From the sequence record NZ_CP123987.1: a DNA stretch of 64,000 nucleotides; one strand, given 5' to 3'. Position numbers and translations under genes: made by a program. How positions within the stretch are numbered: position 1 is the first letter of the stretch; each line of letters starts with the position of its first letter. Below are positions 1,751-64,000 of the stretch, in pieces. The notes beneath the pieces are model-generated. The model had not been told where the DNA came from. It saw nothing but the letters and a program-made list of their open reading frames with translations, and ran no database searches. Source of the DNA: a plasmid.

Positions 1751-2413
1751 TTATAGACAGATGATATTTTCATATTTATTAACAAAAAATCCTCTTATTC
1801 CTTCTTGTAATTGTTGTTTCAAATCAAATTCATATATTGTATATTCATTATTTTTTAAAACTTGTTTCTTATCAAATGGAGCTAACCTATTCAAGTCCTC
1901 AATAAGTGATATTCCGTTATTCCTTTCTGTATTGGTGGTTACGTAAAGTATAATTGATAGTGGTCCGGTTGGTTTAATATCTATTCCATGAAGTCTAATA
2001 TTACGAATCTCTATGGTTCCTCCACCAATGGAACAACCTGAAATTTGCACCCTTTTATCTCCACCAATCAAATCTAAAACTGCAGTATTAGGATGATGAA
2101 TAGGACTTTCACCGCTCTCTTCTACAAACCTAATATCTATTCCTTGTTCTCTAGCAATTTGTCTAGAATTAGGAACTCGTGGATCTGATGCATCAAATCC
2201 TAAAACTCCTGCTGCAATTGCGTAATCTGTTCCATGACCGCGATGCGTCTTAGCAAATGAACCATAGTAATGTACGATTACTCTTTCAGGAATTCCGCCA
2301 AATAAATCATTAGCTGCCCTTCCAATTGCAACCGCACCAGCAGTATGAGAACTTGAAGGACCTATCATGATCGGTCCAATAATATCAAAAACACTTCTAT
2401 ATATATTACTCAA
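1751..2413 (-). CDS. sdaAB: L-serine dehydratase, iron-sulfur-dependent, beta subunit
   Basis: 220 aa; N-terminal IIGPSSSHTAG motif of the SdaA beta chain plus a C-terminal ACT-like region; immediately upstream of sdaAA on the same strand. Confidence 0.85.
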   Translation of the reverse strand: MSNIYRSVFDIIGPIMIGPSSSHTAGAVAIGRAANDLFGGIPERVIVHYYGSFAKTHRGHGTDYAIAAGVLGFDASDPRVPNSRQIAREQGIDIRFVEESGESPIHHPNTAVLDLIGGDKRVQISGCSIGGGTIEIRNIRLHGIDIKPTGPLSIILYVTTNTERNNGISLIEDLNRLAPFDKKQVLKNNEYTIYEFDLKQQLQEGIRGFFVNKYENIICL

Positions 2414-2529
2414 ACCGAGTACCTACTTTCACTAGGATATTTGTCTACATTATTATAGCACACTGTTTAAAATATCACTTTTAATTATTTTTATATTTTT
2501 CACAAGTAATATATAATTTTTACCTACTT

Positions 2530-3340
2530 AAATCATAACCACCCGTAAAACGGGTGGTTTGCTCCACGGCTATAAGCCGTTAAGAACAGCCAGCGTCTCA
2601 AGGCGCTGGCTTTCTCTTCGTTCAAGCCAAATTGCTATGATTTCTTTGCCACCACTTTAAGTGGTATTAGTATCACTTTAACTTATTACCCTTAAAAGGG
2701 TCTGAATATTCTTTAGTTGTCAATTTATCTATCGATAAATCATGTTTTTCTTGATCTCTTATATATTTTCGAATTGTTTGTTCATTCAATCCTACTGTAC
2801 TAACATAATACCCTTCAGACCAAAAATGTCTATTTCCAAATTTGTACTTTAAATTCGCATGTCTATCAAACATCATCAATGCACTTTCCCCCTTTAAGTA
2901 TCCCATAAAACTTGATACACTCTGCTTTGGGGGAATACTTACTAAAAGATGTACATGATCTGGCATCATATGTCCTTCTATAATTTTTACTCCTTTATAT
3001 TGACATAATAACTTTATAATCTCTATTAAATCTTTTCGGTATTGATAATATATTATTTTACGTCTATACTTTGGAGTGAATACGATATGGTATTTACATA
3101 ACCATTTTGTATGGGCTAAACTATTTAGTTTATTAGCCATTTCAAATTATCTCTTTTCTTTTTTATTTTTTGGCCTGAACAACTTAATCTTAAAACCAAA
3201 AGAGTAATTTGTATATAATACTTCATTTTCCACTCGCATAGCGAGTGGTTTTTTGTTTCGTACGCTTTAGCGTACTCAACCAGGTCTAAAGACATAATAA
3301 AAATTGCTGGTAACTTATTAAAAATTACCAGCAATTGTCA
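2530..3340 (-). mobile_element. IS200/IS605-family insertion sequence (Y1 HUH transposase flanked by subterminal hairpins)
   Basis: Clusters of perfect hairpins on both sides of tnpA: 2539-2557 ccacccgtaaaacgggtgg, 2565-2580, 2587-2611, 2648-2665; and 3231-3249 ccactcgcatagcgagtgg, 3259-3276, 3304-3334. Confidence 0.75.
2673..3140 (-). CDS. tnpA: IS200/IS605 family transposase TnpA (HUH Y1)
   Basis: 155 aa with the HVHLLVSIPP (HuH) motif and overall IS200-like sequence. Confidence 0.85.
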   Translation of the reverse strand: MANKLNSLAHTKWLCKYHIVFTPKYRRKIIYYQYRKDLIEIIKLLCQYKGVKIIEGHMMPDHVHLLVSIPPKQSVSSFMGYLKGESALMMFDRHANLKYKFGNRHFWSEGYYVSTVGLNEQTIRKYIRDQEKHDLSIDKLTTKEYSDPFKGNKLK

Positions 3341-3354
3341 CATTCAAATTGTAA

Positions 3355-4860
3355 TTATTTTTTAGTATACTCTACATCGATAGTTCTAACTGTTAATCCT
3401 GTTACATCTTTTCTATATTGTGGTGTAACTAGACCTACAAGATAACTTACTACAAATGAAGTCAAGAAAGATACACTACTTGTAATGAATGGAGAAATAT
3501 TCAAGGATTGTACGTAGTATGTTAAACCAGCTGCAACAATCAAAGCAATTACAGCACTAACAGTATTTGCTTTTTCTGTAAAAATACCTGCAGCGAAAAT
3601 ACCTGCAATAAAAACACCAAATAACCCAGTTACTGCTAAGAATAAGTTCCATGTTTCTGAAGTATTACCAACTAATAAATAAATAGCAACTGCTAAACTA
3701 AATAAACCAGAAATTATAATAATCCAACGAGCTAATGCAACATCACTAACGTTCTTAAATTTATCATTAAAAAATCTTTGTTTAAAGTCAACAATGCCAC
3801 AAGAAGAGATAGCATTCAAACTAGAAGCAATAGTTGATTGAGCAGCAGCAAAAATAGCAGCAATAACTAATCCAGCAATACCAGCAGGAAGTTTGGTTAC
3901 AATGAAGTATGGTACAACTGCACTTGTATTAAATCCTTTTGGTAACATTGCTGCGTGGTTGTAGAAACTAAATAGAACTGTACCCATTCCATAAAAAATA
4001 GGAATTGTGATAAATGCTAAAATACCATTTGTCCAAAGAGATTTTTTTGTTTCTTCCATTGTTGCTGTTGTTTGATAACGTTGTACAACATCTTGACTAC
4101 CAGTGTATTGATACAAACTATTAAAGAATTGACCTGCAAATATCAAGGGTAAGAATTTGGATAAGTCACTTATTTTCATATCAAATCCAGAAATTAATTT
4201 ATGATGTGTAATTGCATCAGAAGCTACAGTAGCCCAGCCCCCATCAATATAATGTGCACCTAAAATAATAACTAATAAGGCACCACCAAGTAGTAAAATG
4301 CCTTGGATAACATCTGACCAAATAACCCCTTCAATACCACCAAGGAATGTGTAAATGATACATAATCCACCAACAAATAATGCAATGATAATTGGATTAA
4401 TATCAGAAACAGATGTAATTGCAATTATAGGTAGGTAAATAACAATAGCTACTCGAGCAATATGATAAAGCATAAATAGTAAGCTACCTAAGATTCTCAT
4501 TACTGGACCAAATCTTTCTTCTAAATATCCATAAGCTGTTGGAACTTTTAATTTTCTAAAAAATGGAACATAATATTTAACCAAAATTGGAATAATAGCA
4601 ATAATTGCTAGATTACCAATTGAGTATGCCCAGTCGTTTAAGAAAGCTTGTTCAGGAGTAGACATAAATGTTATTGCGCTTAAAGTTGTTGCATATATAC
4701 TAAATCCTGCGGCCCAAGCTGGAATTTTACCTTCGGCTGTAAAAAATGAATCTGTATTCTTACTTGCTTTTTTAGTAAAATATGCACCGACAGCTAACAT
4801 TGCTAATAAATATAGAACTAGAACAATCCAATTAAGAGTACCAAAACCTACTTTTTCCAT
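3355..4860 (-). CDS. sodium:solute symporter (SSS family), possible sialic acid transporter
   Basis: 501 aa polytopic SSS-family sequence; in the same neighbourhood as the nanK/nanA/nanE/nanR genes. Confidence 0.75.
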   Translation of the reverse strand: MEKVGFGTLNWIVLVLYLLAMLAVGAYFTKKASKNTDSFFTAEGKIPAWAAGFSIYATTLSAITFMSTPEQAFLNDWAYSIGNLAIIAIIPILVKYYVPFFRKLKVPTAYGYLEERFGPVMRILGSLLFMLYHIARVAIVIYLPIIAITSVSDINPIIIALFVGGLCIIYTFLGGIEGVIWSDVIQGILLLGGALLVIILGAHYIDGGWATVASDAITHHKLISGFDMKISDLSKFLPLIFAGQFFNSLYQYTGSQDVVQRYQTTATMEETKKSLWTNGILAFITIPIFYGMGTVLFSFYNHAAMLPKGFNTSAVVPYFIVTKLPAGIAGLVIAAIFAAAQSTIASSLNAISSCGIVDFKQRFFNDKFKNVSDVALARWIIIISGLFSLAVAIYLLVGNTSETWNLFLAVTGLFGVFIAGIFAAGIFTEKANTVSAVIALIVAAGLTYYVQSLNISPFITSSVSFLTSFVVSYLVGLVTPQYRKDVTGLTVRTIDVEYTKK

Positions 4861-54185: not shown

Positions 54186-55112
54186 CTACAATTCTTTCAA
54201 ATGTTTTAAAATTTTCCGATTATCTTTAGTTTCAAGTTCTTTAATGATATGTAGATATGTTTCTTGAGTAGTCGTAACATTAGCGTGTCCCAATCTTCGT
54301 GATACACTCAAGACTGATACACCTTGGAATAATAGTAGCGATGCATGTGTATGCCTTAGACCATGTATGGAAATTGTAGGAATGTTGGCATGTCGACATA
54401 ATGTTGCTAGTCTGCTGTTGACGGTAGAGTTAAATATTTTTTGATTCTGATTAACGAAAATAGGTTGGTCAGGGTCTTTTTCTTTCGTCAATTTCTTGAA
54501 AGCTTTTAAAGTACTATCATCAACGAAGATTTTCCGATTAGAGCTTTTATTTTTGGTGGGTTGAAAGCCATAATCTTTGAACTTGTAATTCCAAGATTTA
54601 TTAATGTTTATTTGTTGATTTTTATAGTCAAAGTCAGCAGGTGTTAGGGCTAACGCTTCAGCAAATCGCAATCCAGTTTTGCTAATCAAATAGATGAACC
54701 AATCCCAATTTACTTCAGCAGGTAGGTTCAATTCATATAATAAAGCTTGTAATTCATTCATATTCAAGAATTTCTTCTTTTTCTTTCTTTTTTGAATTCC
54801 TTTAATAATAGCTTTTCTTGTAGGGTTAATTCTAATAATTCCATCTTCATATGCATCTACAAGACATGGCTTTAAATGATGATGAAAGTCGAGTGTTGTT
54901 TCACGTTCATGATTTTCAGCAAATTTATTTAAAAGTAATTGATAACTCTTACGATCAAGTTGGTGTAAATGTAAATCAGGGCAAAGTTCTTTAACATGTT
55001 TGTGAGCGAGCTCGTATTTTACTAGAGTCGCATGACGTACTGCATCTTTCTTATATAGCTCAATCCACTCTTTATAGTATTTATGGAACAATTTTGTACT
55101 TTTTCTTGGCAC
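54186..55112 (-). CDS. tyrosine site-specific recombinase (phage-integrase family)
   Basis: C-terminal R…HxxR…Y catalytic-box context (…HGLRHTHASLL…ETYLHI…); adjacent to hsdS. Confidence 0.8.
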   Translation of the reverse strand: MPRKSTKLFHKYYKEWIELYKKDAVRHATLVKYELAHKHVKELCPDLHLHQLDRKSYQLLLNKFAENHERETTLDFHHHLKPCLVDAYEDGIIRINPTRKAIIKGIQKRKKKKKFLNMNELQALLYELNLPAEVNWDWFIYLISKTGLRFAEALALTPADFDYKNQQININKSWNYKFKDYGFQPTKNKSSNRKIFVDDSTLKAFKKLTKEKDPDQPIFVNQNQKIFNSTVNSRLATLCRHANIPTISIHGLRHTHASLLLFQGVSVLSVSRRLGHANVTTTQETYLHIIKELETKDNRKILKHLKEL

Positions 55113-55322: not shown

Positions 55323-55880
55323 ATGAAGTTAAACGAATTGGTAAAAATCGAAAGTGGAATTAATTCAGTTCGTGTAAAGGATCAAAATTATACGCTATAT
55401 ACCATAGAAGACGTCAATTATGACTTGGGGCATGGTGAGGATTATCAACACGATAAGGCTAGTGGTAAAAGTATTACAGCAAGGGGAGATATTGTGATAA
55501 ATACTGTAAGTAATCTAGCAAGTGTTGTTCATTCTAGAAATGCTGGTAAGATGCTTAATCAAATTTTTCTTCGTTTAAATATCCTTGATGAGAATACATT
55601 AGACCCTTGGTATTTATGCTATCTATTAAATAAGTCCGAATACATTAGGTACCAAGAAGCAGCCATTATGGATGGATCTGTTATTAGAAAGCTAACTAAA
55701 GCTAATCTTGAAGATTTAGAGATTAATCTGCCGGGAGTAGTTGACCAAAAGAAGATGGGGGAAGCTTACAAAGAAATTATGAAAAAGTATACATTAGCTA
55801 TGGAGAAAGCGGAGTTAGAAAAAGATCTGTACTTACAAATGTTAGGGGAAAAAGATTTAAACAACAGAGAGGCGGTTTAA
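55323..55880 (+). CDS. hsdS: type I R-M specificity subunit, half-size (single TRD)
   Basis: 185 aa; one target-recognition domain plus a conserved C-terminal coiled-coil spacer (…LPGVVDQKKMGEAYKEIMKKYTLAMEK…). Confidence 0.7.
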   Translation: MKLNELVKIESGINSVRVKDQNYTLYTIEDVNYDLGHGEDYQHDKASGKSITARGDIVINTVSNLASVVHSRNAGKMLNQIFLRLNILDENTLDPWYLCYLLNKSEYIRYQEAAIMDGSVIRKLTKANLEDLEINLPGVVDQKKMGEAYKEIMKKYTLAMEKAELEKDLYLQMLGEKDLNNREAV

Positions 55881-55881
55881 T

Positions 55882-57273
55882 ATGGATAAGGATTTAGAAG
55901 AAAGATTAGCAGTTAAAGATAGCTATATCACTATTCATGACTTTTATGTGTTAATGGCATTTTATCAATCAATTTCACAAAAAGTTTTACGAAAATTTGA
56001 TAAAGATGGCAGCATTTTAGAAGTACAAAAAAAATATGAAGAAAGTAGGGAGACTGTTCAGGATGCTCAATTCGTAATAGCGCCACAAGATACATATTAT
56101 CATCATTACCAAATGTATAAGGCCAATAAATTTGAATATGTTGAACTCGTAAAATCTCTATATAATATAGAAGAAAAAAATCCAAAATTAAAAAATATCT
56201 TCCAAGATGTTAGCGGAAGTACTTCAAGTTTACCGAGTGAAACTGCTTTTGAAAAGATAGATTCACGTAATGAAGTAAGTTTTGAAGAAAATTTAGAAAT
56301 AATTAAGCGAAGCAGTGGCGCTAGGGATAATTACGATTATACTTCGAAAAATATCCGTAAGTTGATTACTAAATTAGTTGGAAGTAAAAAAGAAGGAGTA
56401 TCAATTTATGATCCAGCTTTGGGAACAGCGAGTTTACTGTTAGGTATAAATCGAGATGCACTTAAAGAAAATAAATATTATGGACAAGAAATCAATACTC
56501 AAGTGATAAAAATAGCCATTATGAACGCAATAGTTAATGATGTAGATGATGATAAATTTGAATTTAAGAATGAAAATACATTGGCTAATAACTGGGAATT
56601 TGGCAAGGTTGATATAGTAGTGTCTGATCCACCTATAAATATGAAATGGAATGTTGATAGAAATTTAAGTCAAGATAGACGTTACCGAGATTATGGTGAG
56701 ATGCCTAACAAAGCTGATTGGGGATTCATTTTAGATGGAATAGATAAATTATCAGACAATGGCATGATGGTTGTGTCAGTTGTTCAAGGTACGCTGTTTA
56801 GAGGAGCCAAAGAATACAATATTAGACGTAAACTTCTAGAAGATGGAAAGATTAGGGCGGTAATCCAGTTGCCAGGGAATACAAAAATTTCAACTACAAT
56901 CGCAACTTGCTTATTAGTGCTTAGAAAATCATCAGAAGATAAAGATGTCTTCTTTATTAATGCAAGCCAAGAGTATGAGAAGAAAGGCTTGGAAAATATT
57001 CTAACAGAAGCCAATGTCGATAAAATTGTAGATATTTTTAATGAAAAGAAAGAAGAAAAAGGATTCTCACATGTAGCGAGCTATGAAGAAATTGAGAAAA
57101 ATGATTTTAACCTATCAGTAGCACGTTATGTAAATCAGTATAAGTTTAAAGAAAAATTAGATTATCAAGAAGAAATAAAAAATCTTGAAAAGTTAGATGA
57201 AAAACTAAGTCAAACTGATGCGACATTGAAGAATTTGATGGGTGATTTAGGTTTGATGGAGATTAATAACTAG
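55882..57273 (+). CDS. hsdM: type I HsdM-like N6-adenine methyltransferase with atypical catalytic motifs
   Basis: HsdM architecture with the C-terminal FNLSVARYV motif. Motif I reads IYDPALGTASLLLG (canonical DPACGSGGFL) and motif IV reads VVSDPPI (canonical NPPF/Y). Confidence 0.7.
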   Translation: MDKDLEERLAVKDSYITIHDFYVLMAFYQSISQKVLRKFDKDGSILEVQKKYEESRETVQDAQFVIAPQDTYYHHYQMYKANKFEYVELVKSLYNIEEKNPKLKNIFQDVSGSTSSLPSETAFEKIDSRNEVSFEENLEIIKRSSGARDNYDYTSKNIRKLITKLVGSKKEGVSIYDPALGTASLLLGINRDALKENKYYGQEINTQVIKIAIMNAIVNDVDDDKFEFKNENTLANNWEFGKVDIVVSDPPINMKWNVDRNLSQDRRYRDYGEMPNKADWGFILDGIDKLSDNGMMVVSVVQGTLFRGAKEYNIRRKLLEDGKIRAVIQLPGNTKISTTIATCLLVLRKSSEDKDVFFINASQEYEKKGLENILTEANVDKIVDIFNEKKEEKGFSHVASYEEIEKNDFNLSVARYVNQYKFKEKLDYQEEIKNLEKLDEKLSQTDATLKNLMGDLGLMEINN

Positions 57274-57534: not shown

Positions 57535-57685
57535 AATTTCCAAATTTGCCAATTTAGATATAGGAGAAATTAGAAAATTTGTGCAAATAGTAGATTTCTT
57601 AGATTAAAAACTAAATTTTTGCATAAATTAGAAAATTGGTCCTGTGTCTAGAATGGAAAATTGGAGAAAAAGGAGAAAAAAGAAG

Positions 57686-59650
57686 ATGAAGTTATTTAAT
57701 AAAAGTCATTCTAAAAATAGTGAGTGGTATTTTCCAGGTGGTAAAGACTTACAAATGGAATCTGGATCTAATGCGAGTTTAGAAATGTTTAAGGATAATC
57801 CTTTAGACTCTTTAGCTAGAGAAATATGTCAAAATTCGTTAGATGCTGGGATAGAGGGTAGTAATAAGCCTGTTCGAGTAGAGTTTACAAGTTTCAAGGT
57901 TAAAGCTGAAAATATTCCAGGATATCTGGAGCTAAAATATGAAGTTATAAATAAGGCGATGAAACAATGGCCTAATGAGCAAAAAACAATGTCTATGTTA
58001 AGAAAAATGGACAGGATTTTGAAAAATAAATTTGTTAATGTTTTAAAAATTAGTGATTATAACACTACTGGTTTACGAAAAGAAAATTGGAAATCATTAA
58101 TTGAACAAGTTGGTTCATCTGTAAAGAAAGATTCATCATCAGCCGGATCATTTGGTATTGGTAAAGGGGCACCATTTGCTGTTAGTGATTTACGAATGGT
58201 ACTGTATAGTACTTTGGCTGATGAAGGTATTAAGTCCATTGGTGTAATGAAGTTTGTATCTTATAAAGATAAGCTTAATGGGAAAACTATAATTACCCAA
58301 GGTACAGGATATTATGGGGAAAATGGGAGTAAGAAACCAATTTCAAAAGATTTTGGATTAGGAGGAGAAATATCTAGAACTGAAAAGGGAACAGATATCT
58401 ATATTATTGGTTTTAATCAAGAATTGATGGAGAACTGGACTAAAGAAATAACATATTCTTTAGCAAATAACTTCTTATTTTCTTTCTATACTAATAAATT
58501 AGAAGTAGTTATTGATAATAAATATATGCTTGACTACAGTAAGATGAACAAGATTATTGAGGAAATTCGTAATGATAAGAAATTACTAAGGAAATATGAG
58601 TATTTACCAGGTTATTATGATGTTTTACAAGATGAAGATCATAAAGAATTTAATTTAACTGGATTCAAAGAATATGGTATTAAAGATGGGGAAGCAATAC
58701 TTTATACCTCAAATAAGGGCGATGTAAATCGTAGAGTATTAATGACAAGAAATGCAGGTATGAAGATTAAAGATCTAAATAGAATCAGTTCCATTATTAA
58801 ATTTTCCGGAATATTCTATGCTCATGGAAAAAATATCAACGGAATACTTAAACAACTAGAAAATCCTAATCATAATGATTGATCCAAGGATAGATCTGAA
58901 ACGCCTAAAAAAGCTGGCAGATTCTTAAAAGGTATGAATAGATTTATAAAAGAAACTATCAAAGATACATATACTGAAAAAGTAGCTGATGAAGTTGATG
59001 CATATGGGGTTAGTGATTTCCTCCCAGAGGATATAAATTCGATAAGACTGTCAAATAAAAAAGTCAAAGATAAAGGTCATAAAAAAGTAGCTATTGAGAT
59101 TGAAAAAATAAATACAAAGTCTAAAGTAGCTAGAGTTAGAGAAAATAATCATATTACTGGCGGCGATGATAAAGGTGTTACTAAAGGTGGAGTAGGTCAA
59201 GGAGATAGTTTTGGTACAGCTTATGATGGAAGAGGACATAGAGGTGGATCTAGTACAGGAAATAACTTTGGTTATGGCGATAGACCTGGGGAAAATGGAC
59301 CTAATAACAATGATGATATGTTTATAAAAAATAGAAATAGTCAAAAAAAGATAACCAATGTGAAATACAGATGTATAGAAGTTGATCATCAAAGTGGAAT
59401 GTATAGGCTGATGGTAAAGCCTGATAAGAGTTTAAGCAATGTGCGTATTGATTTAGATGTTATTGGTGATTCAGGTAAAAAAGATACAGTTCAGATAACA
59501 AAGGCGACCTATCGAGGAAAACAATTAAATATAGGATATTCAAATGTATATATCCAATCTTTACTTGCAGGATCTTGGCAGCCTATCATGATAAAACTTA
59601 ATGGAAATACACGGTTGAAATTGGAGGTAGAAATTTATGCGAATATCTGA
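57686..59650 (+). pseudogene. MORC-like GHKL ATPase (HATPase_c_3-type) with an in-frame TGA
   Basis: Bergerat-fold N box LAREICQNSLDAG and G-box SAGSFGIGKGAPFAVSD. TGA at 58880-58882 lies in frame between the 412-aa and 238-aa ORFs, so a single reading frame covers the whole length. Confidence 0.65.
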
Positions 59651-62406
59651 CAGTATTTATCCTTATCCAGTATTATCAGTAGATGATGAAGATTATATTC
59701 AAGATTCAGAATTTGATGTCGAGTTTACTAGTGTTACAGCAACACCATTTAAAAATGCAATTGTAAAATGTAGATTTATTTTACAGTGCGCCCGGCATGG
59801 TCGATAACTAGGTGGTGAAAGTCCGCTGTGGGCCGTAGTAGTAGGAACCACGAGCCAAGGGCAAGGGTGTCCATCGTGAGGTGGAATCTGAAGGAAGCTC
59901 GATGAGCAAACCACTGCACTGATGAACAAAAATCGACTGTAAGGCCAAGGGGAGAGGATAAGGTTGCTGTACAAACTGAAGTCCAATACTACTCGAAACA
60001 AACCTTGGTAAAGTCGGCAGTGACATGGTGGGAAAGTTATCGTCCTTACCCGGGGAGGTCTGGTCTGCAAGTTTCCGACAAGAGGAATACCTATAATTCC
60101 ACAGAAACAAGCGTTTCAGTGATGGAACGTTGAGCAGAGCAGAAGTCAGCAGAGGTCATAGTAGCCTAAATTAGGCGAAGGACTGAACGACAATAACTCA
60201 TAAATTATATTGGAGGTGAAGTTGGTGCGACAATCGCAGAAAACAGAAATACAAGCTGGCCGCTTGTCGAGGATAGATTTGGAAAATCAAAAGTACACAA
60301 GGGTGCGTAGCACCAATTTTGGTGAAAATAAAGGTATGAGTGTCACTATTCAAGACGAAGTCTTAGACCGCAACAACCTAAATAAGGCATACTTGCGTGT
60401 CAAAAGTAACAGAGGAGCAGCTGGCATTGATGAAATGACAGTTGACGAATTATTCCAATACCTTAGAGAAAATAAAGAGGAACTTACCACAAGTTTGCGA
60501 GAAGGAAGTTATAAACCACTTCCAGTTAAACGTGTAGAAATTCCTAAGCTAAATGGGGGAACGAGAAAGTTAGGAATACCGACAGTAATTGACCGTATGG
60601 TCCAACAAGCAGTAGTTCAAGTACTAACACCCATATTTGAAGAAATTTTCTCTGAAAACAGTTTTGGTTTTCGACCAAACAGAGGAGCTCAAGATGCGAT
60701 AGATAAGGTAATTAGTTATTATAATCAAGGATATAAACGAGTAGTAGATTTGGATCTTAAATCCTACTTCGATAATGTTAATCATGATTTAATGATAAAA
60801 TACTTACAGCAATATATAGATGATGAATGGACGTTAAAACTCATACGTAAATTTCTAACAAGTGGAATATTAGACAATGGGTTATTCGTCAAAAGTGAGA
60901 AAGGAACTCCACAAGGAGGGCCTTTATCACCACTATTAGCCAACATCTATCTTAATGAGCTAGATAAGGAATTAACTAAACGTGGACATCGTTTCGTTAG
61001 ATACGCAGATGACTGTAATATCTACGTTAAAAGTCAGCGAGCAGGTGAAAGGGTAATGCGTAGCATTACGAAGTTTCTAGAAAAACAACTAAAAGTTAAG
61101 GTAAACACAGATAAAACACGAGTAGGCAGTCCTATAAAACTGAAATTCTTAGGTTTCTCTTTGGGAGTAGATAATAAAGGAGGATATGCTCGACCATCAA
61201 AAGAATCTCAGAAACGCGTGAGACAAGCACTTAAAATGACAACCAAGCGAAATAGAGGAATTTCTCTGAACGATATGTTCAAAGAAATATACCAGAAAAT
61301 GCGTGGTTGGTTACAGTATTACTCAATAGGGAGAATGACTACTTTTATCAGACGTCTTGACCAATGGCTAAGGTCAAGAATAAGGCAATATATCTGGAAA
61401 CAATGGAAGAAACCTAAAACAAGATTTGTTAACTTGAAGAAGTTAGGGTTGTCACAACAAGATGCATATACATTTGCCATGACTCGTAAGGGTTACTGGC
61501 GAACTGCACATAGTAAGACATTAACGTATACCCTAACTAATAGAAAACTGGAGCAACTAGGACTAATAAATATGTCCAAAGTACTCCAGTCAATACAAAG
61601 TGATTAAATTGTCGAACCGCCGTATACGGATCCGTACGTACGGTGGTGTGAGAGGTCGATAATTGAACTAATCAATTATCTCCTACTCGATTGATCGCAA
61701 TTTAGAAAGATTAATAAGCTTAGGTAAAGCAGGATTGTATTTACGTGTAGAAAATAGTCTCACTGCATATCGTAAACTATACGCATTAGAACCTGGGAAA
61801 TATACGTTTGAATTAGAAATAGATCCTAAATATATGAGAAAAAAAGTAGAGGTAACAGGCTTACTTTTAGCAAAACAAAATATCACAGATTTTATTAGTG
61901 ATACTATCAATACTGACCTATATGGAAAAGATTATGTATTTCCTGATTTAAATACTGGGGACCCATTAGCTGTTGCATTTACTACTAATGTTGTTGTAAA
62001 TGACGAAGATAGTTTTAAAAGTGTATCTTCAATTATGAAGGTAGCTAAATCAAAAAAGGAGTATATGGTAGTAGATCCAGATGGAGAAATCATATACGTA
62101 TATTTGCCAGAAACTTTATATGAACAATATATTAGATACCAATCAGTACCAGATATAGCTTTATCAATAGTAATATTACCGGCACTTATACAGGTTTTAA
62201 GTTATATGGTATTAAACCGAGGTAATGATATTGATGAACAAAAATGGTATATGGTAATTGAGAAGAAAATAAGGAGTTTAGATAAGGATATTAATGATTT
62301 ATTTAACGAAAAAATTTCACCACTAGAGTTAGCACAAATGATCTTAGAAAATCCAGTAGAAAGATCATTCAATGAAATAAAGGGGATTGTTGGAATTGAA
62401 GATTAA
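59637..62406 (+). CDS. hypothetical protein encoded by two exons interrupted by a group II intron (exon 1 59637-59785, exon 2 61692-62406)
   Basis: Exon 1 (50 codons, RBS GGAGGTAG) ends at the GTGCG intron 5' end. The in-frame open region upstream of the 223-aa ORF extends back to ~61681. Joining 59785 to 61692 keeps the frame, giving a ~288-aa product. Confidence 0.5.
59786..61691 (+). mobile_element. group II intron (~1.9 kb) with an ORF in domain IV
   Basis: 5' GTGCGCCCGG…; structured G/C-rich RNA 59786-60200 that contrasts with the AT-rich surroundings; IEP; domain V-like hairpin GAACCGCCGTATACGG…CGTACGTACGGTGG at ~61614-61650; domain VI-like stem and an …AT end at 61691. Confidence 0.75.
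60222..61607 (+). CDS. ltrA: group II intron reverse transcriptase/maturase (no endonuclease domain)
   Basis: RT domains 0-7 including FVRYADDCNIY (YADD) and maturase domain X; a GGAGG RBS before TTG/GTG at 60222/60225. Confidence 0.85.
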   Translation: MVRQSQKTEIQAGRLSRIDLENQKYTRVRSTNFGENKGMSVTIQDEVLDRNNLNKAYLRVKSNRGAAGIDEMTVDELFQYLRENKEELTTSLREGSYKPLPVKRVEIPKLNGGTRKLGIPTVIDRMVQQAVVQVLTPIFEEIFSENSFGFRPNRGAQDAIDKVISYYNQGYKRVVDLDLKSYFDNVNHDLMIKYLQQYIDDEWTLKLIRKFLTSGILDNGLFVKSEKGTPQGGPLSPLLANIYLNELDKELTKRGHRFVRYADDCNIYVKSQRAGERVMRSITKFLEKQLKVKVNTDKTRVGSPIKLKFLGFSLGVDNKGGYARPSKESQKRVRQALKMTTKRNRGISLNDMFKEIYQKMRGWLQYYSIGRMTTFIRRLDQWLRSRIRQYIWKQWKKPKTRFVNLKKLGLSQQDAYTFAMTRKGYWRTAHSKTLTYTLTNRKLEQLGLINMSKVLQSIQSD

Positions 62407-63190
62407 GGCGAAAACTTGCGATGAGAATTTTTTAGAGGAAATAAAACGAAATTTTGATACTAAATACATAGATTTATATCGTAATTTCGATAAGAAGGGT
62501 ATTCAAGAATTATTCGATAATGAGTTAGTGTATGATATAGAACATGAATTTGAATACTTAGAATTGTTTGATCCTAAATCTTTTAGTGATTTATTTACAA
62601 ATAATATAAAAAATACTTATGAGGCGTTGAAATTTTTAACACCTGCCCAAGCATCTAGAGAAGAATTTTGGTTTACTATGATTAATACTGTATATTTAGA
62701 TTATTTATTGGATTATTTAAAAACGGTATCGGATCGTAAAGATTTTGATCAAAAGATTAAAAATAGTATTTTTTATAATAGCTCAATTACTAAGGCACAA
62801 ACAATTCAAAGAATATCTCGATATTGGTGGTTAGGTTATAGGACATATGATGAAAAAAATATTTCAAATCCATATTGGCTGACAGAATATTTCTTTGAAC
62901 GTGATGGTTCCAGTAAAATTATTGCATTCTTTTCTAGTAATTTGACTAACAATAAAGATATTGCATTAGGAATAATTGAAGGTATCAAAAATAGAAATGA
63001 TAAGATAGTAAATAATAGATGGGCATATTTAATTATGAATAAATATTTTAATGCTATGGGTGGCGTTAGAATCATAGATATTATGACTAGGGAAGAAATT
63101 AAAAAAGAAACAATGAAATATATTGATTATATAGTAGAGAACCCAGAACTATTATCATTAGAAGAGAGAAAGGGAATAATAAAGGGTTAG
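62390..63190 (+). CDS. hypothetical protein (operon member, unknown function)
   Basis: ~266 aa; overlaps the upstream gene end; no known motifs recognised; start uncertain. Confidence 0.45.
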   Translation: MELKIKAKTCDENFLEEIKRNFDTKYIDLYRNFDKKGIQELFDNELVYDIEHEFEYLELFDPKSFSDLFTNNIKNTYEALKFLTPAQASREEFWFTMINTVYLDYLLDYLKTVSDRKDFDQKIKNSIFYNSSITKAQTIQRISRYWWLGYRTYDEKNISNPYWLTEYFFERDGSSKIIAFFSSNLTNNKDIALGIIEGIKNRNDKIVNNRWAYLIMNKYFNAMGGVRIIDIMTREEIKKETMKYIDYIVENPELLSLEERKGIIKG

Positions 63191-63245: not shown

Positions 63246-64000
63246 CATGGCTATTACGGAGTATGAAGATAAAATAAAGGATATTGTAGAGAATCTAGAC
63301 AAAGAAGAATTTATCTTTGAATTTTTGAGTGTTTATAGCAAAATTGCAAAATCTACAATTACTAAATTACGCAAGGGGACTAATAATTTATCTAAGGTGC
63401 CTGGTGAATACCATTTAAAAAATAAATTATATTTTAAACAAGTTTCAGGAGATACATTACAAGCTTTTACTGACTTGGTTAGTAAAATATCTCAACAAAA
63501 TGTGAATCCAAGATACATTATGGTAACTGATTTTAAAAACTTAATTGCAAGGGACACAAAAACTCAAGAAACAATAGACATTGATTTTAAGAAGTTACCA
63601 AGAAACTTTGAATTTTTTTTAGCTTGGAATGGCATTGAAAAAGCTGATTTCGAAAGAGAAAATCCAGCTGATTTAAAGGCTGCTGAGAGATTTGCAAAGT
63701 TGTATGATACATTGTTAAAAGACAACGAGCGCATATCCAGACATGGACTAAATTTATTTTTAATTCGATTACTCTTTTGTTTATTTGCAGAAGATACAGG
63801 AGTGTTTGAAAAAGATATTTTTACTAATACAATTAAGAGCATGACAAAAGAAGACGGCAGTGATTTAAACTGCCGAATTCAAGAATTATTCGAATTTTTA
63901 GATACTAAAATTAGACCGGAAGATACACCTGCATGGTTGAGAAAATTTCCTTACGTCAACGGGCAGCTATTTACTGAACAACATACAAACGTTGTCTTTT
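63246..64000 (+). CDS. MmeI/PglX-family (Type IIL R-M / BREX methyltransferase-like) protein, N-terminal part (gene continues beyond the window)
   Basis: …LNLFLIRLLFCLFAEDTGVFEK…GSDL…FPYVNGQLF matches the conserved MmeI N-terminal region (…LYLVRLLFCLFAEDTTIFEK…FPYINGKLF); GGAGGAGAAAG RBS. Confidence 0.7.

Follow-up and report, generated by a model that had tools for sequence, protein, structure and literature searches.

Group II introns of bacterial class C (IIC) have a short exon-binding site 1 (EBS1), are followed by T as the first base of the 3' exon, and encode an intron-encoded protein (IEP) that has no endonuclease (En) domain (PMC1702495, PMC4424553). Their targets are DNA stem-loops, usually those of intrinsic terminators, and the requirement for a stem-loop is established (PMC1702495, PMC4424553). 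Recognition proceeds without a long homing site, through the stem-loop, an intron-binding site 1 (IBS1) of 3-4 nucleotides (nt) and the single base of IBS3. Residence inside genes is mainly a trait of CL/ML introns (PMC4424553). Here we describe a IIC intron within the protein-coding gene PDC-M33B, in a 64,000-nt stretch of a plasmid (sequence record NZ_CP123987.1; "the window" below means this whole stretch). Exact-sequence look-ups of the IEP, both exon open reading frames (ORFs) and neighbouring genes all lead to Ligilactobacillus salivarius. PDC-M33B belongs to PDC-M33, a computationally defined candidate phage-defence system, whose three genes lie adjacent on a megaplasmid in the order A-B-C. 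We consider it very probable that an apparently active IIC intron was reverse-spliced into PDC-M33B and inherited from that one event in a megaplasmid lineage whose operon is inactive or decaying. As the insertion of a mobile element the case is genuine but of a rather ordinary sort, a known class at an atypical site, and it reveals no new mechanism.

The closest described relatives are B.h.I1 of Bacillus halodurans, GsI-IIC of Geobacillus stearothermophilus and the intron of structure 7uim. The window intron resembles these three in its En-less reverse transcriptase (RT), which is nearest to the GsI-IIC RT and the 7uim protein, in the CGC triad of a short domain V (D5), in an EBS1-IBS1 pairing of 3-4 bp, in the T at IBS3, and in having sibling copies directly after intrinsic-terminator hairpins (PMC1702495, PMC4424553). 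Unlike them, the window copy is located within a coding sequence, in sense orientation and with no terminator upstream, and the stem-loop next to it is weak, shares bases with IBS1 and has no T-run. In addition, the IEP is longer at the N-terminus than that of GsI-IIC by about 40 residues, which are conserved in Lactobacillaceae relatives. IIC-attC introns such as S.ma.I2, which use the stem-loops of integron attC sites, are also class C introns that employ a non-terminator stem-loop (PMC4424553); the window site, however, has no integron or attC context, and its putative target is a hairpin that arose by chance within an ORF. Ll.LtrB, in the relaxase gene ltrB, and the CL/ML introns of cyanobacterial housekeeping genes are likewise sense-oriented in ORFs whose frame splicing would restore. 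Those introns belong to classes IIA and IIB, have long IBS1/IBS2 homing sites and mostly En-containing IEPs, whereas the window intron is of class C and its host operon carries a nonsense mutation.

Intron boundaries, splice junction and class

In every feature that can be checked in silico the element is a group II intron. An Rfam scan of the whole window gives exactly three matches above the gathering score, all on the plus strand and collinear (Table 1). The intron begins directly 3' of exon 1 with GTGCG (59786-59790), in agreement with the conserved GUGYG, and ends with CGAT, in agreement with the conserved AY. Domains V and VI (D5/D6), which the first-pass annotation of this DNA had placed near 61614-61691 with a terminal AT, coincide with the covariance match to RF00029, and the 3' end is unchanged. 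A candidate branch point is A 61685, which is bulged and lies 7 nt from the 3' end of the intron.

The intron is inserted after the second base of codon 50 of PDC-M33B. Joining 59785 to 61692 produces a 287-residue ORF without a stop codon, the product of which matches positions 1-282 of 289 in the PADLOC model PDC-M33B (PDLC04583; E = 2.4e-57). Intron-less homologues of 287 residues, found by protein search at identities of 43-97%, can be aligned through the junction with no gap, and the junction residue His50 and the motif L-H-D are conserved in them. At the DNA level, loci L001-L006 and plasmids H1-H4 have no intron, and the stretch they are missing is exactly 59786-61691. The ligated-exon sequence ...TTTATTTTACA/TGATCGCAAT... 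(TTTTACA/TGATCG, the slash marking the junction) is identical in L004-L006, and L001-L003 depart from it only in having T instead of C at position -2; the predicted reading across the junction can also be written ...AGATTTATTTTACA/TGATCGCAATTTAG.... Four complete L. salivarius megaplasmids carry the operon without the intron, and other plasmids match only query positions 2187-4093, which correspond to the intron itself. Junctions shifted by 1-3 nt in either direction were considered and rejected, none of them giving the empty-site DNA. An ancestral intron that was lost elsewhere can likewise be ruled out, because the homologues in other Lactobacillaceae, down to 43% identity, are continuous and because the intron is identical to mobile copies.

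These results agree in most respects with the first-pass annotation, which had proposed, from the letters of the DNA, that a group II intron interrupts a protein-coding gene of the defence operon and that this gene has a good ribosome-binding site. The three Rfam matches and the PADLOC matches to PDC-M33A, B and C bear out the former proposal, with the intron oriented as the gene and the operon being a defence candidate, and the GGAGG located 9 nt before the ATG supports the latter. The intron start at GTGCG 59786 was also correct, but exon 1 comprises 49 codons and two further nucleotides rather than the 50 codons described. Splicing from 59785 to 61692 was said to join exon 1 in frame to a 223-residue ORF, and the spliced protein, its homologues and the empty-site DNA all concur; the intron-less homologues, a comparison that had been suggested, do exist and have the same junction and frame. 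The junction coordinates therefore stand, although the quoted junction string contained one T too many, and the product has 287 residues instead of about 288.

The IEP matches the Pfam families RVT_1 (E = 1e-42) and GIIM (E = 1e-15), contains the YADD motif, and scores 426 bits against NCBIfam TIGR04416, for which the cut-off is 300. No En (HNH/endonuclease) domain was matched in the Pfam scan, as expected from the earlier description of an RT/maturase without En. The exact sequence of this IEP is already annotated in L. salivarius. Among proteins of solved structure, similarity is highest to the GsI-IIC RT (6ar1; 403 bits, E = 1e-119) and the group II intron RT/maturase of 7uim (380 bits, E = 2e-112), followed by the RT fragments 5hhj/5hhl (about 297 bits), LtrA (151 bits) and 6me0 (129 bits). 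We take 6ar1, 7uim and 5hhj/5hhl to be class IIC entries, LtrA to be IIA and 6me0 to be IIB.

A CGC triad in D5, as opposed to AGC, is a hallmark of IIC introns. A one-genome-per-species scan yielded 589 relatives of the IEP, of which the best 80 were retained. D5 of the window intron starts with C-CGC-CGUAU (61617-61625), a sequence that is invariant in 22 related introns from Lactobacillaceae, Bacillaceae (including Geobacillus and Bacillus lineages), Clostridia and Sporomusa; these share a common D5, the distal stem of which shows G/C covariation. When domain I was aligned for about 24 relatives with known exon flanks, a block of 3-4 nt in a GC-NNNN-CA loop was seen to covary with the last 3-4 nt of the 5' exon, TAGA occurring, for example, with ..CTA, AACA with ..TGTT, TTCA with ..TGAA and ATAA with ..TTAT. 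In the window intron this block is UGUA, and it is complementary to the TACA of exon 1 at four of four positions. An alternative EBS1, UGUAAG at 59939-59944, was dropped because the segment that contains it, CTATAAGGC, is kept in all relatives regardless of the exon. No sequence upstream of TAYA is common to the siblings; this speaks against an IBS2, no search having been aimed at EBS2. The similarity of the IEP to solved IIC RTs, the CGC triad and the 4-nt EBS1-IBS1 pairing thus identify the intron, by similarity and structural hallmarks, as a IIC intron of L. salivarius, and the same three features rule out classes IIA and IIB. The first-pass annotation had recognized a group II intron but had missed its class, which would account for the hairpin, the 4-nt IBS1 and the T found at the site. 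A literature search for L. salivarius together with "group II intron" returned no relevant paper.

Target sites of the intron and its siblings

The same 1906-nt intron, with 0-1 mismatch, is present at no fewer than six other sites in L. salivarius, located after fba, flavodoxin, acetyltransferase, glyoxalase and prophage tail genes, and next to an element resembling insertion sequence (IS) IS200. All of these sibling sites have hairpins of -15 to -28 kcal/mol that end 2-9 nt upstream of the intron, a 5' flank ending in TAYA and a 3' flank beginning with T. Similarly, nearly all relatives with readable flanks sit a few nt after a strong hairpin, usually one followed by a T-run and hence an intrinsic terminator, and T is the base at +1 in nearly all related insertions. 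Among 41 such insertions, no more than one falls in a sense-strand open frame that spans the junction. The location in PDC-M33B had been called unusual for a bacterial group II intron, and these counts show that it is so especially for class C.

Just upstream of the intron in PDC-M33B there is a perfect 8-bp inverted repeat that ends exactly at the insertion site (Table 1). In the reconstructed pre-insertion window, a perfect hairpin of 8 bp ends 0-9 nt before only 8 of the 597 TAYA/T sites (1.3%), and the site that was used is among them. These data suggest that the PDC-M33B site is a fortuitous mimic of the normal IIC target, in which an A/T-rich hairpin followed by TACA/T would have permitted the intron to enter the coding sequence by reverse splicing in sense orientation. 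Viewed in this way, the locus offers a clean natural case of a class C intron, normally found just after terminators, colonizing a coding sequence by means of a chance hairpin and a 5-nt match.

Several points nevertheless weigh against this account. The hairpin at the PDC-M33B site is weak by folding, at about -6 kcal/mol and z = -1.2 relative to shuffled sequences. Moreover, its 3' arm contains IBS1, while the stems at sibling sites end 2-9 nt upstream, so that formation of the stem and pairing of IBS1 would compete here, and the presence of the hairpin may be a coincidence. EBS3 was not located in domain I, and the class has been assigned from similarity and hallmarks rather than from a formal phylogeny with reference class members. 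The weakness of the hairpin and its overlap with IBS1, which have no counterpart at the sibling sites, would also be expected if insertion had been a near-random ectopic retrotransposition with no guide other than the 4-nt IBS1 and the 1-nt IBS3. It is also true that A/T-rich inverted repeats are common in this genome, 98 positions with the end of an 8-bp hairpin being present among about 124,000 scanned. On the other hand, the frequency of such hairpins at TAYA/T sites (8 in 597) corresponds to a chance probability of about 0.013 for the observed coincidence, all other copies of the intron and nearly all of its relatives follow hairpins, and the need of IIC introns for a stem-loop is well documented (PMC1702495, PMC4424553). 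We therefore regard insertion through IBS1 and IBS3 alone as unlikely, if still worth serious consideration, and favor use of the hairpin as target. Together, the empty sites, the siblings and the inherited alleles could provide a natural test case for the strength of stem-loop that a IIC intron needs, and for exon ligation in the context of a weak stem.

Related introns provide some further observations on target choice. In loci L027 (at about 1904), L043 and L044 (at about 2446) and L069, related IIC introns are arranged in head-to-tail tandem, so that one copy directly follows the D5/D6 end (...CTCCTACTCGAT) of another. It seems that a second insertion in these tandems uses the domain VI hairpin of the copy already present as its stem-loop target.

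Comparison of L087 with L088, L091 and L093 (intron at 2562-4467, or 1492-3397 in L093) shows a single 3' flank, TATCTACA, upstream of a MatE gene, in combination with two different 5' flanks. One of these is the fba terminator and the other is the terminal hairpin of an IS200-like element (Y1 transposase) followed by TTTACA that abuts the intron, which suggests an IS insertion or rearrangement exactly at the 5' boundary of the intron. Two other loci have mixed flanks: L089 (intron at 2562-4467) combines a prophage-tail 5' flank with exon 2 of PDC-M33B, and L106 combines exon 1 of PDC-M33B with the MatE-side 3' flank. Neither was treated as an independent insertion, given that recombination between intron copies or chimeric metagenome assembly across the 1.9-kb repeat would give the same arrangement.

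Splicing, function and probable decay of the invaded operon

Transcription of the operon would yield a precursor mRNA from which precise splicing, initiated by the candidate branch-point A at 61685 or by hydrolysis, would restore the 287-residue frame of PDC-M33B. On the strength of this rejoining, the first-pass annotation had concluded that the host gene is probably still functional. Precise splicing of any reverse-spliced intron, however, rejoins the frame automatically, and in-frame rejoining is consequently no evidence of selection or of retained function. In addition, the IIC intron B.h.I1 does not ligate its exons in vitro if the stem in the 5' exon has been removed or mispaired (PMC1702495). 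Since the stem in PDC-M33B is weak and overlaps IBS1, and IIC ligation needs a good 5'-exon stem-loop, it is uncertain whether splicing at this site is efficient.

Examination of the neighboring gene also casts doubt on retained function. When aligned to the intron-less locus L001, PDC-M33A of the window shows a single TGG-to-TGA change at the codon listed in Table 1; the intact form, seen in L001 and in NZ_CP047413, has 654 residues. The TGA is present in all 11 intron-bearing alleles (the window and 10 sampled alleles), and TGG in all three intron-less alleles that cover the site. Among the 10 other intron-bearing alleles, three have a further break in PDC-M33A, one has a split PDC-M33C and one, L105, has a split IEP. 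Assemblies GCA_009870295.1 and GCA_009863785.1 are examples of intron-bearing isolates. Because the nonsense mutation occurs in every intron-bearing allele examined, the PDC-M33 system is probably already inactive in the lineage that carries the intron, and the claim of a functional host gene is doubtful.

The proposal most at variance with this conclusion holds that the intron is efficiently spliced and that PDC-M33 functions, the PDC-M33A fragments acting as separate polypeptides or through reinitiation and the intron being a harmless or regulatory passenger. It can draw on the sense orientation of the intron, on the fact that precise removal gives a full-length, conserved 287-residue protein, and on the intact state of the intron, which is identical to recently mobile copies. 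The invaded allele is, moreover, about as common as the intron-less one in public data: the exact 56-residue read-through ORF of exon 1 is found in 279 contigs (552 sample blocks) and the 223-residue ORF of exon 2 in 237, against 266 contigs for the intron-less 287-residue protein, although these counts may reflect repeated sampling of one successful plasmid lineage. The two PDC-M33A fragments share a frame and the second has its own ATG, so that some residual function is possible, and the nonsense mutation and the insertion may have occurred in either order. Nevertheless, a functional system is hard to reconcile with a nonsense codon in 11 of 11 alleles, with the breaks in PDC-M33A, PDC-M33C and the IEP, which suggest relaxed selection, and with the failure of IIC exon ligation in vitro when 5'-exon stems are weak or mispaired (PMC1702495); the rejoined frame, as noted, adds no argument for it. 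We consider a functional PDC-M33 in this lineage improbable; given the nonsense mutation linked to the intron, the locus is unlikely to play a working part in defence. An even bolder version, to which we give hardly any credence, would have the intron-bearing PDC-M33B maintained at high frequency in L. salivarius because its expression has become dependent on splicing, with the IIC intron as a conditional switch responding, for example, to IEP level, stress or Mg2+. Were this correct, the switch would be the first example of a terminator-seeking class C intron domesticated in a coding gene of an immune system.

The history of the insertion can be read in part from the intron copies themselves. 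Between the window copy and those resident in PDC-M33B of other strains there are 2-12 substitutions, whereas nothing distinguishes the window copy from copies at other genomic sites. This pattern implies that the insertion is not brand new and that the intron family is either still active or being homogenized. The simplest account is a single insertion followed by inheritance in a common megaplasmid lineage, in which PDC-M33A carries a nonsense mutation, so that the intron most likely resides in an inactive or decaying operon. Decay of the operon, together with the L105 allele and its broken IEP, could be taken to mean that the element is a dead relic that no longer splices or moves and simply disrupts the gene. 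The window copy, however, retains an intact 460-residue IEP with YADD, canonical D5/D6 and a GUGCG 5' end, and is 100% identical over 1906 nt to the copies present at no fewer than five other sites in different strains, which points to recent mobility. A dead relic is thus very improbable, and an apparently active intron in a decaying operon remains our preferred reading.

The findings have consequences for annotation. The 56- and 223-residue "hypothetical proteins" in hundreds of L. salivarius contigs are the two exons of PDC-M33B, and automated tools used in surveys of defence systems will miss or mis-score the PDC-M33 locus of the window.

A decayed PDC-M33B is also seen in another L. salivarius strain (V8V50_11575 and V8V50_11580; proteins P0023 and P0074), where a 187-residue ORF begins at residue 176 and is frameshifted into PDC-M33C, and a separate 101-residue fragment represents the N-terminus. 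This is an independent inactivation of the same operon.

The PDC-M33 operon and its island

The coordinates of the intron, its parts and the genes of the operon are collected in Table 1. All three PADLOC models of PDC-M33, of which the C component corresponds to DUF6339, match here in order and in a defence-type island. The window locus departs from the defined system in that a stop codon truncates gene A and the intron interrupts gene B, so that not all genes are intact.

Table 1. Positions of the intron, its functional parts and the PDC-M33 genes in the 64,000-nt window
Feature	Position	Strand	Remarks
PDC-M33A, N-terminal fragment	57644-58882	+	PADLOC PDLC04582 positions 3-377 of 627; ends at premature TGA 58880-58882
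PDC-M33A, C-terminal fragment	58934-59650	+	Model positions 397-625 of 627; same frame as N-terminal fragment; own ATG 58934
Ribosome-binding site GGAGG of PDC-M33B	59623-59627	+	9 nt upstream of ATG 59637; read from sequence
Exon 1 of PDC-M33B	59637-59785	+	49 codons plus CA of codon 50; PADLOC model matched from position 1
Perfect 8-bp inverted repeat TGTAAAAT-N8-ATTTTACA	59762-59785	+	Ends exactly at insertion site; codons for VKCRFIL; candidate stem-loop target
IBS1 TACA, last 4 nt of exon 1	59782-59785	+	Complementary to EBS1; siblings have TAYA here
Group II intron, bacterial class C (IIC) by similarity and hallmarks	59786-61691	+	1906 nt, from GTGCG to ...CTACTCGAT
Domain I core, Rfam group-II-D1D4-3 (RF02001)	59870-60044	+	137 bits, E = 3e-28; holds EBS1 loop
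EBS1 UGUA, in loop GC-UGUA-CA	59968-59971	+	Covariation with exon ends in about 24 related introns
Domain III and start of domain IV, Rfam group-II-D1D4-1 (RF01998)	60108-60183	+	71 bits
RT/maturase IEP	60225-61607	+	460 residues from GTG 60225; alternative starts TTG 60222 and TTG 60210
D5/D6, Rfam Intron_gpII (RF00029)	61615-61691	+	49 bits against gathering score of 40; full model 1-77; ends AU
Domain V, 30 nt	61617-61646	+	CGC triad 61618-61620, AC bulge 61636-61637, short distal stem; from RF00029 alignment
Domain VI	61649-61689	+	Rfam alignment and sequence reading; bulged A 61685
IBS3, first base of exon 2 (T)	61692	+	T at +1 in nearly all related insertions
Exon 2 of PDC-M33B	61692-62406	+	T 61692 is third base of His50 codon; stop 62404-62406
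PDC-M33C (DUF6339)	62396-63190	+	PDLC04584, E = 6e-49; overlaps end of exon 2

Searches of Pfam and NCBIfam for the functions of PDC-M33A and PDC-M33B gave nothing significant, the sole indication being a sub-threshold match of PDC-M33A to sacsin/GHKL-like ATP-binding domains, and no paper on PDC-M33 or DUF6339 was found in the literature. The operon is preceded by genes for an integrase and for two type I S/M components, a half-size HsdS and an N6-methylase, and is followed by genes for an MmeI-family protein, a DEAD-box helicase and a GIY-YIG nuclease.

Two features of this neighborhood deserve comment. The HsdS half gene (185 residues) and the HsdM-like N6-methylase gene (55323-57273) lie beside a tyrosine-recombinase gene (54186-55112), with no hsdR in view near them. 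Since the pair is directly upstream of PDC-M33 and on the same strand, it may be part of the PDC-M33 module.

The second feature is a 284-bp invertible segment (63717-64000, reaching the end of the window) inside the downstream MmeI-family restriction-modification gene, bounded by the 11-bp inverted repeats AAAAGACAACG (63717-63727) and CGTTGTCTTTT (63990-64000). With the orientation present in the window and in L103 there is one uninterrupted MmeI-family ORF, whereas in L001, L097 and NZ_CP047413 the segment is flipped and the gene is split into MmeI_N, a 66-residue minus-strand piece and the remainder. The segment looks like a phase-variable ON/OFF switch, for which the integrase gene at 54186-55112 is a candidate source of the recombinase.

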